Below are positions 1 to 6,000 of a DNA stretch of 18,757 nucleotides, piece by piece (position 1 is the first letter of the stretch; each line of letters begins with the position of its first letter). This DNA is from a virus (taxonomy: Duplodnaviria; Heunggongvirae; Uroviricota; Caudoviricetes). The position numbers were made by a program. The stretch is from IMG/VR virus record IMGVR_UViG_2534681649_000009; one strand, given 5' to 3'.

Positions 1-3000
1 ATGGCTCAAGTTATTAATGAAATGGATGTTCCGTCCCATTCGTTTGTTTTTCATGGTACAGGTGAGAGATATTTTCTTATTTGTGTGGTGAATGTGTTGT
101 TAACGATTATAACGCTAGGTATCTATTTACCATGGGCATTAATGAAATGTAAGCGTTATCTCTATGCTAATATGGAAGTTAACGGACAACGATTTTCGGT
201 AATGCTGCCAACTTACTGATTTAGTGTATGATGGTGATTTTAAGGTGCTTGCGTGGCTTCCATTTCCATCAGATGTCCTTCCTGCTCCGCTACTGAAGGC
301 GTGGTGCGTAACGGCAAAAGCACTGCCGGACATCAGCGCTATCTCTGCTCTCATTGCCGTAAAACATGGCAACTACAGTTCACTTACACCGCCTCTCAGC
401 CCGGTACGCACCAGAAAATCATTGATATGGCCATGAATGGCGTCGGATGTCGCGCCAGTGCACGCATTATGGGCGTTGGCCTCAACACGGTTTTACGTCA
501 CTTAAAAAACTCAGGCCGCAGTCGGTAACCTCGCGCATACAACCGGGCAGTGATGTGATTGTCTGCGCTGAAATGGACGAACAGTGGGGCTACGTCGGTG
601 CTAAATCACGTCAGCGCTGGCTGTTTTACGCGTATGACAGGATACGGAGGACGGTTGTGGCGCACGTCTTCGGTGAACGCACTCTGGCCACACTGGAGCG
701 TCTTCTGAGCCTGCTGTCGGCCTTTGAGGTCGTGGTATGGATGACGGATGGCTGGCCGCTGTATGAATCACGCCTGAAGGGAAAGCTGCACGTTATCAGC
801 AAGCGTTACACTCAGCGCATTGAGCGACATAATCTGAATCTGAGACAACATCTGGCAAGGCTGGGACGGAAGTCACTGTCGTTCTCAAAATCGGTGGAGC
901 TGCATGACAAGGTCATCGGGCATTATCTGAACATAAAACACTATCAGTAAGTTGGAGTCATTACCTAAATTCCTGGCGGAAGTGCGTCAGCACACCTGGT
1001 CATCCGGTACCAACGGTGTGGTGGCTGCAACGTTCTCACTGCGTCTGAAAGGCAAACCGGTGTCCTTTGTGGTACCGCTGGCGTTTGTGAAAAATCTGGA
1101 TAAGACACTTACCGTGAATACCGGTGCGCTGCTGACAATGTCAGTCAGTGCCAACGGGGGAATGCCGCCGTATAAATACGCCTGGAAGAAGGATGGTCAG
1201 CCGGTTGACGGGCAGACGACAGACACCTTCAGTAAGCCAGGTGCGCAGTCCGCTGATGCGGGGAAATATACCTGCGTGGTGACCGATTCGGCAGAGAAAG
1301 CACAGAGTGTGACGTCTGTTGAATGCACCGTGACAGTGAGCGCAGCTGCCGGATAAGGGGATGGGTCATCATGAAAAAGGATCTGAAAACGCTGGCGCTG
1401 GCCAGACTGTCAGGGTTTCGTCATAAAACGGTGAAGGTGCCGGAATGGGGGAATGTCAGCGTGGTGCTGCGGGAGCCTTCGGCAGAGGCCTGGTATCTGT
1501 GGCAGGAAGTGCTCAATGGTGATGGAGAGGATGACGATACCCTGTCGGTGGTGGCGAAAACCCGCCGTAACTTGGAAGCGGATGTGACGCTGTTCTGCGA
1601 TGTCCTGTGTGATACGGACCTGCAGCGGGTGTTCACTCCGGACGACCGTGAGCAGGTGCTGGCCGTCTATGGTCCGGTACATGCCCGGTTGCTGCGTCAG
1701 GCACTGGAACTGATCGCTGATGCAGAGTCGGCCAGAAAAAAGTAGCCCGCCCGGAAATTCGCTTTCTGATGCGACTTGCGCTCCGTCTGGGGCGCACCTT
1801 ATCCGAACTGCGCCACAGCCTGAGTGCGAGCGAGGCGATGATGTGGATGGAGTTCGACAGGATATCCCCGCTGGGTGATGAGCGCGGGGATATCCGTAAT
1901 GCACAGATCGTGAAAGCGGTTTTCGGGGCACAGGGGATGAATGTTGCACTGAAGGACGTCATGCTCTGCTGGGGCGAGGATGAGGATAAGCCGGAGGTGG
2001 ATCCGTTTGCGGCGCTGGAAGACGCGCTGAGCTTTGCAGCACAGTCATGAATGATGAGAACCGCTGAGGCGGTTTTTTTACGCCCGGAGAAAGGTGAATG
2101 GCGACGTTACGTGAACTGATTATCAAAATTGTAAGCTTCCGGGGAACTCATATTGACGCGTTTTTCAGGCGCGCGTCATCGGCGGCGCATACGAACGCTC
2201 GTGGTTTGATAACGGTTGATTTATTTTGTTGCACAGAGGCGATCGCCAGGCAGGTACCGGAGGCGGGCTCTGAAGTACTGAGTAGCGTGATCGCGTCAGG
2301 CCGCGAAGTACTGACTCGGGGATTAATTGCAGGTGATGATGTACTGACCCGGGAATGACTCCGGGCTGATTCAGGTTCTTATTCGCTGTCAGCCCGCGTG
2401 GTTGCTGGTCTGGCTCATTTCCTGCCGTCAGGAGTTCAACTCCCGACTGCAGGTTATGGCCCGGTGCACGAACACCTGACGGCAGGTATCACTCACCCGG
2501 AGAAGGTAAATCCCTCAAGAGGCAGCAACTCTGCCAGTCGCTCCTCCGGCCACTCCGGCAGACGCATCAGGACGTCTGTCAACCAGGCATGCGGCTCCAG
2601 ACCGTTGCGTTTCGCGGTTTCCAGCAAGCTCATTATTTGCGCGGCGCGTTCTCCCGCCATCTGCGAACCGGCGAACAGCCACGATTTTCTGCCCAGAACC
2701 ACGTTTTTGATGGCCCGTTCACACACATTATTATCCAGCGGCACCGCACCATCTTCCAGGAAGCGGCTCAGTTCCACGCGATGAGACAGCGCATAGGCAA
2801 TAGCTTTGTGTAATGCCTTTCCCGGAGAACATTGCGGTTCCTGCTCTTCAAGCCATGACCACAGTTCTTCCAGTATCGGACGGGCATAACGCTGTCGCCA
2901 CTGGCGGATTTTTTCCACGGGGCGGCTACTGATCTTCTTCTCAAGACGGTACAACCCCGCGATTTTCTTCACGGCTATGGCAGCCCGTGGATCTTTACTG

Positions 3001-6000
3001 ATTTTATACAGGTCGGCGAAGCCCCTGCGGGCATGGGCCCAGCATCCGGCCAGCGTGATCTCCGGCACTTTGTTTGCCAGAGTCCGGTAAGCTTTATGTC
3101 CGTCGACAACCAGCGTCCCGCCCCAGCCCTGAAGCCAGTTTTCAGGATACTCATGGCTACGTCCGGTCCGGCAGTCGAAGCACACAACTGACGGTCCCGT
3201 CCTTTCTCCACTGACGTATGCCCACAGATAACCGGAGCAGGATTTACCGCCTTTCTTCGTGTTCAGGATCTTCAGGGTAGTCTCATCTGCATGCACCACC
3301 GGACGGTTTATCAACTCGCGATGGAGTAACGCCGCCAGGGGAGATAATGCGGCACCCGCCGCGCCAACCATGTCAGCCATCGAACTGACGGGCAGCCCGA
3401 CATCTGAACGGGCAAAGACCTGTTGCTGGCGATACAGAGGCAGGTGGTCACCGTATTTATTGATGATCACCTGTGCGATGACTGATGGCTCAACGGCACT
3501 TTTCGGGAGGATATGTGCCGGCATTTCACCGCTGAACACCTTCTGGCAACAGGGACAACTGTATTGCGGACGGACATAACGGTTCACCACAAAGTGAGCG
3601 GGAATATACTCCAGCTTTTCACTCACCGCATCGCGGATATAGTGCAGCGGCTCGTCACATTCAGGGCAATGGTCAGTGTCCGGCTGGATCATTTTTTCCA
3701 CCCGTGGAAGATGAACCGGTAAGGGTTTGCGTATCGGGCGTGAACGGGACGCTTTTTCATCTTCTTCAGGGGATTGCGGGAGCAGTTTATCCAGATGTGC
3801 GGTAAGCGCGGCGATATCGGCATCAACATCCTCTTCGAATAGGGAGCGTTGCATACCAGCCAGCGTTTCACATTTTTTTCCGAAGCGCTGTTGACGAACC
3901 AGTTTCAGCATTTCTTCCAGAAGCTGGATGCGCCGGCTTTTCTCCAGTAATTCCCGCTCTTTTTCGGCATTCTCCGACATGACTTCTTGTACCATGGCAA
4001 GTGCCATAGCACGCAGTTTTTCGATGTCATTCGTGGTGTTGAGAGCGGAGATATCCATACAGGGGAGTATACCACTCCAGATACGGATATTCATTATTTT
4101 TCACTGAGTTAGCAGTGTATTTTTCGTGTTTTCAGGGCGCAGTTCAGGTTCATTCTGCCAGACCCATTTCGTCAGGTCATGTCCCTTAACCTGCTGCCAG
4201 TCAACACCGGCAATCAGCCAGTTAAACTCGTCGGGAGTGAGGTGCCAGGCAGCGTCATTTGCACGTGGCCAGCGGAAGCTGCCTTTGTGCAGACGGCGGG
4301 TACACAACCACACCCCGTGTTTATCCCACCGGAGAACTTTGATACGCGAACGGACTTTGTTAACAAAGACGAAGGCGGCTCCCTCATGCCATGTCGACCG
4401 GAGTTCATCCTGTATATACTGCGTCAGTGAGTCGATGCCCCGGCGCATGTCAACAGGTTTAATTGCGATGAAGACATTATCAGGACTGAGCATATTTGAG
4501 TGCCCTGAAGACATCGGTAAGTTGTGACGGCTGACAGCACATCCGTACTCCACCGGGAAGGAAGAGCGTGACTGGCTCATTCGTGACGGGCTGTGGTACA
4601 TCAGCATGCAGTGGTGGCGCAATATGAACGGGAAGAACGGTCGGTTCATTTGCCCGGCGTTCAGCTTTTGCGACATCCTGCGGCCATTCGCGAAGTGATG
4701 TGAAGGGAATATCGTTGAGTTCACAGTATTGCTGACGTGTAAGACCACTGGCGCGCCAGGCAGCAACGTGCTGCCTTTTCTGTTCAATGGTCCATCGGGG
4801 TTTTGACATCGATTATCTCCGGTAAGTTGGTGAATGGATGTCGGTAATACTAACTGACCGAAGATCCCTGTGAAGATGACTTCCCCGTAACGACACTCAA
4901 AATTTCGGCAAATTCACAGTCATTCCAGTCGGAGATCCAGCGGGCGTCCCGTATGGGCAGTGAATATTACCGGACCCTGCAGAATGGCGGACGTCATGCC
5001 GCTGCTGCCGCACGGGAACAGCGCCGCGCCCTTGCAGAACTGAACAGTCAGTTGACGGAAATTCGCGGTTCTGCTGTCGGAATGGCTGGCGCATTTGCCG
5101 GTGCCTTTGCCACCGGACACCTGATTTCGCTGGCCGATGAGTGGGGTTCCGTGAATGCCCGTCTGAAACAGGCATCTCAGTCATCGGATGAATTCTCGTC
5201 ATCACAGAAAGTGCTGATGGATATCAGTCAGCGAACAGGTACCGCGTTTTCGGATAATGCGGCCCTGTTTGCCCGTTCGGCTGCCTCGATGCGTGAATAT
5301 GGTTACAGTGCTGATGATGTGCTGAAGGTGACGGAGGCCATTTCGACAGGACTGAAACTGTCAGGGGCTGGAGTTGCGGAATCCGGTTCGGTGATCACCC
5401 AGTTCAGCCAGGCACTGGCACAGGGTGTACTGCGTGGCGAAGAATTTAATGCTGTTAACGAAAATGGCGACCGGGTGATCCGCGCGCTTGCTGCGGGGAT
5501 GGGTGTGGCCCGTAAAGATCTGAAGGCAATGGCGGATGACGGAAAACTGACAGCGGATAAAGTGGTCCCTGCGTTAATCAGCCAGCTGGGGATATTACGT
5601 GATGAATATGCGGCCATGCCGGAAACGGTTTCCGGTAGTATCACGAAGGTGGAAAACGCCTTTATGGCCTGGGTGGGCGAAGTGAATGAGGCCTGCGGGG
5701 TGACAAAAACGCTCTCCGGCGTGCTGAACGGTGTTGCCGGACAGATTGATAATGTGGCAACAGCTGTGGGGGCGCTGGTTGCCGTCGGGGTTGCCCGGTA
5801 CTTTGGCAATATGGCCTCCGGAGCGATGTCTGCCACGGCAGGACTTGTGACGGCTGCACGTAATGAAGTTGCACTGGCGGAAGCACAGTTCAGGGGAACG
5901 CAGATTGCCACGGCGCGGGCAAGGGCAGCCGTGTACCGTGCTCAGCAGGCCGTGGCGGCAGCCCGCGGGACGGAGATGCAGATTGCTGCAGAGGCCCGTC

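Follow-up and report, generated by a model that had tools for sequence, protein, structure and literature searches.

The 18,757-bp stretch analysed here, IMG/VR virus record IMGVR_UViG_2534681649_000009 (Caudoviricetes; hereafter "the window"), contains the tail module of a lambda-like prophage whose tail tape-measure gene is interrupted by ISEc49, an insertion sequence (IS) of the IS66 family. We consider it very probable (about 0.93) that ISEc49 transposed once into this gene in a Shigella ancestor and that the remnant of the gene is now decaying neutrally. An earlier note, drawn up from the sequence of the window alone, had proposed a simple and probably recent insertion of an IS66-family element after codon 11 of the tape-measure gene. 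The architecture it described was recovered in full, and the age it assigned was not. The split gene, its open reading frames (ORFs), the element and the target-site duplication (TSD) are arranged as follows.

2098-2130, plus strand: 5' part of the tape-measure gene, 11 codons (MATLRELIIKI), with the ATG at 2098
2098-2358, plus strand: 86-amino-acid (aa) stub ORF, consisting of the 11 tape-measure codons and 75 codons from the ISEc49 end
2123-2130: left TSD copy, TCAAAATT
2131-4896, genes on the minus strand: ISEc49 (IS66 family), 2766 bp
2131-2157: terminal inverted repeat distal to tnpC (IRR), GTAAGCTTCCGGGGAACTCATATTGAC
2493-4058, minus strand: tnpC, DDE transposase, 521 aa from the PGAP start
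4101-4493, minus strand: tnpB, IS66 Orf2 accessory protein, 130 aa (PF05717, 2.9e-34; NF033819, 114 bits)
4480-4809, minus strand: tnpA, IS66 accessory protein, 109 aa (NF047593, 50.8 bits, cut-off 28)
4870-4896: terminal inverted repeat proximal to tnpA (IRL)
4897-4904: right TSD copy, TCAAAATT
4905-8114, plus strand: tape-measure remainder, codon 12 to stop (Pfam TMP_3, Phage_HK97_TLTM and Tape_meas_lam_C)

The IS66-family assignment can be narrowed to ISEc49 by the comparison with catalogued family members that the earlier note had proposed. Over its full length, the element is 99.7% identical to the best copies among 5,426 complete Escherichia coli genomes (megablast; a collection that excludes Shigella), which are annotated as 'IS66-like element ISEc49 family transposase' together with tnpB and tnpA, and identity to RefSeq-annotated ISEc49-family copies over all 2766 bp ranges from 98.7% to 99.7%. 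The assignment is by proxy, through these RefSeq/PGAP-annotated copies, whose naming follows ISfinder. Copies with at least 80% coverage were found in 205 of the 5,426 genomes, and no match to the element was found in 50,697 phage records. The copies annotated as ISEc49 have in common with the element in the window the length of 2766 bp, the termini, the tnpA-tnpB-tnpC order and 8-bp duplications. The window element is set apart by 9-13 substitutions from the nearest copies in E. coli, and by three lineage-specific missense changes absent from other copies (I>M in tnpC, and Q>K and A>V in tnpB). In our literature searches, ISEc49 came up in only two papers, and little specific was found on reviews of IS66 target duplications or on IS insertions in tape-measure genes.

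The three genes lie on the minus strand in the order tnpA-tnpB-tnpC, with a 14-nt overlap between tnpA and tnpB. TnpC matches DDE_Tnp_IS66 (PF03050, 2e-90) as well as zf-IS66, LZ_Tnp_IS66 and IS66_C (PF13005, PF13007 and PF13817), scores 441 bits against NCBIfam NF033517 (cut-off 180), and would be 533 aa long from an alternative in-frame ATG at 4094. For TnpA the Pfam scan gave no match, and a tnpA gene is annotated in the homologous ISEc49 copies. A predicted, consensus-level sigma-70-like site at 4874..4847 on the minus strand is directed toward tnpA. IS66-family elements have imperfect terminal inverted repeats of ~20-30 bp that typically start with GTAA. The terminal repeats of the element, which the earlier note had put at ~27 bp, are imperfect, with 19 of 27 positions matching and a 21-nt core at 81%; one end starts with GTAAGC and the other with GTGTCG, and both ends are conserved across all copies examined. 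Three independent ISEc49 copies agree base for base with the window element over the outermost 30 nt on each side, so that its ends at 2131 and 4896 do not depend on the flanking repeat for their definition.

The repeat itself, TCAAAATT, is present exactly twice in the window, directly abutting the two ends of the 2766-bp element as the earlier note had described, and its reverse complement does not occur in the 18,757 bp. A target duplication of 8 bp is the rule for IS66 elements (PMC6778807), and each of the three other ISEc49 copies has its own, different 8-bp duplication (GAATGAAG, GTTAATGC and GTTTACTG). The chance of finding identical unrelated 8-mers at independently defined ends is 1/65,536. 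One further ISEc49 match (H51) seemed to run 24 nt into the flank, raising the possibility of a shared target; on inspection its flank proved unrelated.

Excision of the element together with one repeat copy, by joining 2098-2130 to 4905-8114, restores an uninterrupted frame of 3243 nt (1080 codons plus stop) that starts with MATLRELIIKISANSQSFQ, as befits a simple insertion with an intact TSD. The corresponding empty site was searched for with an 800-nt reconstruction comprising 400 nt per side, one repeat copy having been removed. It gave a single ungapped match in 1,245 of the 5,426 complete E. coli genomes (best 99.5%), and 92 phage records had it too, for the most part those of long-tailed Stx1a- and Stx2c-converting phages. 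In the E. coli O157:H16 genome NZ_CP062876, no base differs from the reconstruction over the 120 nt that span the junction, TCAAAATT is present once, and the reconstructed protein differs from the intact allele of that genome (WP_000212762.1, 1080 aa) by five residues. Intact alleles thus align to the reconstructed gene with no gap across the junction and have one copy of the 8-mer, so that neither of the two observations that would have told against the earlier note was made. The reconstructed gene has the domains (PF20155, PF06120 and PF09718), the length and the position, after G/T and before M-L-K-I-J, of a lambda gpH-like tape-measure gene. It is colinear with the tape-measure genes of Stx1a and Stx2c phages and of E. 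coli prophages, at 96-99.5% identity across the junction. These genes have the same Pfam domains and the same place after G/T, and the gene in the window is interrupted after codon 11.

The insertion is widespread in Shigella. By exact-protein look-up, the 1053-aa ORF that starts at 4953 is ABB65837.1 of S. boydii Sb227, and the junction-specific 86-aa stub occurs on 715 public contigs, the named ones coming from S. flexneri, S. boydii and S. dysenteriae; it is listed in 993 collection blocks, 51 of which hold contigs >1 Mb. In each of the 10 chromosomal loci of Shigella that were examined, the element is inserted at the same position and has the same TSD. A closer group (loci L015-L018, L020 and L021) is 99.86-99.99% identical to the window over 10.5-12 kb and includes Sb227, S. 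boydii ATCC 8700 and 602068, and S. flexneri serotype 6 604193 and 401192, the serotype 6 carriers coming from Bangladesh and Kenya (strain identities: PMC9430107, PMC7545283, PMC11708030). A more distant group of four loci is 99.2-99.6% identical to the window. Between the window and this distant group, the IS (2766 bp) has 6-7 substitutions, V-G-T (1165 bp) has 2-3 and the tape-measure remainder (3218 bp) has 4-5. ISEc49 and its flanks therefore differ between the lineages at a similar low rate, about 0.15-0.26%, and because they have diverged in parallel, the insertion is older than the split of the two Shigella groups. In the S. boydii strains ATCC 8700 and 602068 (L017 and L020), a shared C>T mutation at the equivalent of position 6330 turns a Q codon of the tape-measure remainder into a stop, and each strain is otherwise identical to the window over 12 kb, so the window strain is a very close relative without this mutation.

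The insertion is not an assembly artefact, as independent short-read contigs span both junctions. A contig from ERR1810573 is 100% identical to window positions 941-9264, and another from ERR5984617 runs across the whole of ISEc49 and both junctions with 2 differing bases, which supplies the junction confirmation that the earlier note had asked for. Such contigs also suggest that ISEc49 is present as a single copy in those genomes.

Further features of the element concern its gene frames and its non-coding end. All three ISEc49 genes are open in nine of the 10 related loci, the exception being Sb227 (L016, CP000036.1), whose copy has a 15-bp deletion in tnpA, equivalent to 4574-4588, that is absent from the window and the other nine loci; in Sb227, a single 210-aa product is called across tnpA-tnpB. 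The 362-bp non-coding end of the element, downstream of tnpC, contains between 2272 and 2347 three copies of GAAGTACTGA (the third as GATGTACTGA) with a palindromic AGTACT core and an exact spacing of 33 bp. These motifs may be protein-binding sites. Tandem Repeats Finder reported nothing in this non-coding end, the 33-bp periodicity being confined to the 10-bp motif, and two short-read contigs (L009 and L011) end at 2298, within the stretch of these motifs. Directly 3' of the tnpC stop, a strong hairpin at 2421-2486 on the minus strand has 17-nt arms with 94% complementarity, and the RNA fold of 2405-2500 reaches -46.5 kcal/mol (z = -5.2 vs shuffles); since no U-run follows, it is not a canonical intrinsic terminator. 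We regard as quite unlikely a set of further proposals in which ISEc49 would be silent or incompetent for transposition in its hosts, the 362-bp end would be an undescribed regulatory or binding module, or the tail module would serve as recombination stock for phages.

More can be said about the tape-measure gene itself. Its first in-frame ATG, GTG or TTG after the element is at 4953, corresponding to Met28 of the intact protein and opening the 1053-aa ORF, and no ATG, GTG or TTG lies between the in-frame TAA at 4851 and this codon. The only GGAG near the restart is 18 nt upstream of 4953, and a consensus-level promoter and terminator scan found no promoter-like site on the plus strand near the right ISEc49 end. 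In many Shigella genomes, a 1086-aa 'tape measure protein' is called by PGAP from a CTG at 4854 (4854-8114; P0018 and P0020-P0022). It starts with MTEDPCEDDFPVTT, and its first 14 codons lie inside the ISEc49 terminal repeat. For the 86-aa stub, the Shigella annotations give a hypothetical protein; both calls are probably annotation artefacts of one pseudogene.

The substitution pattern of the remainder was compared within Shigella and against the intact E. coli allele. Among eleven Shigella copies, the eight variable sites comprise six missense changes, one nonsense change (the stop at 6330 in two strains) and one synonymous change, while the remainder differs from the intact E. coli allele by 5 non-synonymous and 27 synonymous changes (7:1 within Shigella vs 5:27; Fisher's exact test, p = 3e-4). 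With seven non-synonymous changes and one synonymous change since the insertion, the pattern points to neutral decay of the remainder. Further damage is seen in other Shigella copies: L is split, an IS3-family element has inserted upstream of J, and M has no gene call. These data bear on the proposal that a truncated tape-measure protein is made from Met28 at 4953 or from the CTG at 4854 and kept by selection, as recombination stock or for a tail-derived function. In favour of such a role, the frame is open in the window and in eight of the 10 related loci, and downstream of it the window has intact copies of M, L, K, I, J and lom. Against it stand the excess of non-synonymous changes after the insertion, including the stop in L017 and L020, the lack of an ATG, GTG or TTG ahead of 4953, the distance of 18 nt from the only GGAG, the lack of a nearby promoter-like site, and the broken tail tube gene described below, and we consider it very unlikely. 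The restart downstream of the element, which the earlier note had held open as something the phage might tolerate, is not supported by either the sequence or the substitution pattern.

The tape-measure gene is not the only tail gene to have been hit, as a second IS lies at the left end of the module.

1-197: 5' 197 bp of the chromosomal gene yjgN
198-965, plus strand: complete IS1, 768 bp, the second lesion, cutting the major tail gene
966-1356, plus strand: 3' 391 bp (55% of 717 bp) of the major tail subunit gene, by alignment to locus L001

If whole, the major tail gene would span 640-1356 of the window by the same alignment. Homology to the tail module starts only at 966, and the IS1 cut sits 1.1 kb upstream of the tape-measure gene. 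The earlier note had ascribed the loss of tails to the break in the tape-measure gene. This break is real, and the account is incomplete, because the major tail gene is also split by IS1. The prophage lacks the tail tube gene and, at the window locus, all upstream genes, whatever the state of the tape-measure gene. The locus does not have the make-up of a functional prophage, with 391 of 717 bp of the major tail gene left and with IS1 and yjgN, not head or late-regulatory genes, upstream of it.

The IS1 in the window has cgattttcg at one end and taaattcct at the other, and so no target duplication. In the four distant Shigella loci, IS1 lies inside an otherwise complete major tail gene with a 9-bp TSD, TAAATTCCT, and has head genes upstream; in the Sb227-like group its left flank is pocR, and in the window it is yjgN. 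The IS1 and ISEc49 insertions are both older than the split of the two Shigella groups. Three alternative left partners and a lost TSD form a signature that points to recombination between IS1 copies. Loss of the TSD and altered partners have been used in the same way to infer recombination between IS copies in an IS66-mediated deletion in Agrobacterium (PMC6778807). The window IS1 resembles that case in lacking a TSD and in its three alternative left partners, and the difference is that here IS1 has recombined and not the IS66-family element, ISEc49 having kept its TSD. The genes yjgN and yecD, the latter at the right end of the window, lie far from each other on the E. coli K-12 map, so the yjgN-IS1 connection would be a large inversion or an assembly join.

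The shared lesions also bear on the age of the ISEc49 insertion. A recent, strain-specific insertion into an otherwise functional prophage would account for the intact TSD, the three intact IS genes and the open tape-measure remainder. The junction between ISEc49 and the tape-measure gene was found in none of the 5,426 complete E. coli genomes (megablast), and the exact 35-nt junction pattern had no match in a one-genome-per-species collection, with few Shigella, or in metagenome contigs. The absence from the one-genome-per-species collection says nothing about rarity, since it includes few Shigella genomes. From the E. coli search, the junction had at first seemed unique to one strain, an impression that the exact-protein look-ups ruled out by showing the junction to be common. 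It is present in all 10 Shigella loci, whose lineages are up to 0.8% apart over 12 kb, and the stub protein is on 715 contigs. Its carriers are not one strain (Sb227, ATCC 8700, 602068 and the serotype 6 strains from Bangladesh and Kenya), the major tail gene is already split by IS1, and the window locus has neither head nor early genes. Together with the parallel divergence of the IS and its flanks, this makes a recent origin, as the earlier note had supposed, highly improbable. Homologous recombination between two ISEc49 copies, or misassembly across the repeat, in place of transposition would resemble what the neighbouring IS1 has undergone, with its mismatched flanks and three left partners, but is extremely unlikely given the matching 8-bp TSD, the perfect restoration of the gene on excision and the independent short-read contigs that cover the whole IS with both junctions.

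Our favoured explanation remains a single ancestral transposition followed by neutral decay. One copy of ISEc49 would have transposed into a lambda-like prophage integrated beside yecD, entering the tail tape-measure gene between its codons 11 and 12. By analogy with known transposition in the IS66 family and by DDE transposases in general, TnpC, together with TnpA and TnpB, would have cut the target with an 8-bp stagger, and gap repair would have duplicated TCAAAATT. Phages without a tape-measure protein (gpH in lambda) cannot assemble tails, and the insertion would therefore have occurred in a lysogen. From the identical junctions we infer a single event in the ancestor of S. boydii (Sb227 and ATCC 8700 among others), S. 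flexneri serotype 6 and assemblies filed under S. dysenteriae, with vertical inheritance of the insertion ever since. The gene would thereby have been split into an 86-codon stub (11 native and 75 IS codons) and a promoter-distal remainder without a native start. IS1 would also have hit the major tail gene, and recombination between IS1 copies would have swapped all leftward sequence, differently in each lineage. The tail module would now be a remnant under neutral drift, and its loss of function is likewise probable from the lesions.

A few points weigh against this explanation. The 1053-codon frame is still open in the window and in eight of the 10 related loci, which may leave room for the expression of a truncated tape-measure protein. 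The lineage-specific missense changes may bear on the present transposition activity of this ISEc49 copy. The same junction pattern would also arise if recombination had passed the broken prophage segment from one Shigella lineage to another. Finally, none of the other assemblies examined has the yjgN-IS1-tail junction, and at none of the eight places listed for the yjgN'-IS1 stub does the tail module lie on the other side; the junction reflects either a rearrangement peculiar to this strain or a join made across IS1 during assembly.

The remainder of the window completes the picture of the prophage remnant and its right boundary.

1371-1745, plus strand: tail chaperone gene G, intact ORF (annotation of L001)
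up to 2050, plus strand: tail chaperone gene T, intact ORF, adjoining the tape-measure gene upstream
17819-18067, minus strand: dinI-like gene
18422-18757, minus strand: chromosomal yecD, running off the window

Directly before the stop of G, at 1736-1742, is the heptamer A_AAA_AAG, and the -1 frame is open into T; judged from its sequence context, this is the conserved arrangement for the programmed G/GT frameshift of lambda-like tails. Downstream of the tape-measure gene, the tail-fibre region (14918-17700) is broken into short ORFs (14918-15778, 15744-16331, 16372-16929 and others), and the annotation of L006, the homologous locus in E. coli, lists pseudogenes there: partial tail-fibre, Gp38-like and DUF4376. 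The fragmented region represents further decay or mosaicism at the right end of the prophage. The dinI-like gene is followed by chromosomal yecD, which places the right prophage boundary beside yecD, and this stretch matches the equivalent junction of E. coli O104:H4 genomes at 99.1% identity.

The closest precedent in kind is ISEc8, another member of the IS66 family, which interrupts the terminase gene nu1 of prophage Sp4 in E. coli O157 Sakai (PMC2669165). In both cases, the host is an enteric pathogen rich in IS elements, and an IS66-family element has inactivated a gene that is essential for the morphogenesis of a lambda-like prophage. The IS66 member, the target gene and the host lineage differ, and the prophage in the window has been truncated further by IS1 and rearrangements. 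ISEc49, the tape-measure family and the IS-driven decay of Shigella prophages are all established, and the insertion itself has already been deposited, including in the Sb227 genome (CP000036.1). The locus is a clean textbook case in which both the TSD of an IS insertion and the empty site can be recovered, and holds no new biology. It accounts for the 86-aa hypothetical proteins and the 1053- and 1086-aa 'tape measure protein' calls in many Shigella genomes, which should be annotated as one pseudogene. Together, ISEc49 in the tape-measure gene and IS1 in the major tail gene may mark the S. boydii, S. dysenteriae and S. flexneri serotype 6 group as a lineage, and the varying sequence to the left of IS1 may serve to trace IS1-mediated rearrangement within this group.

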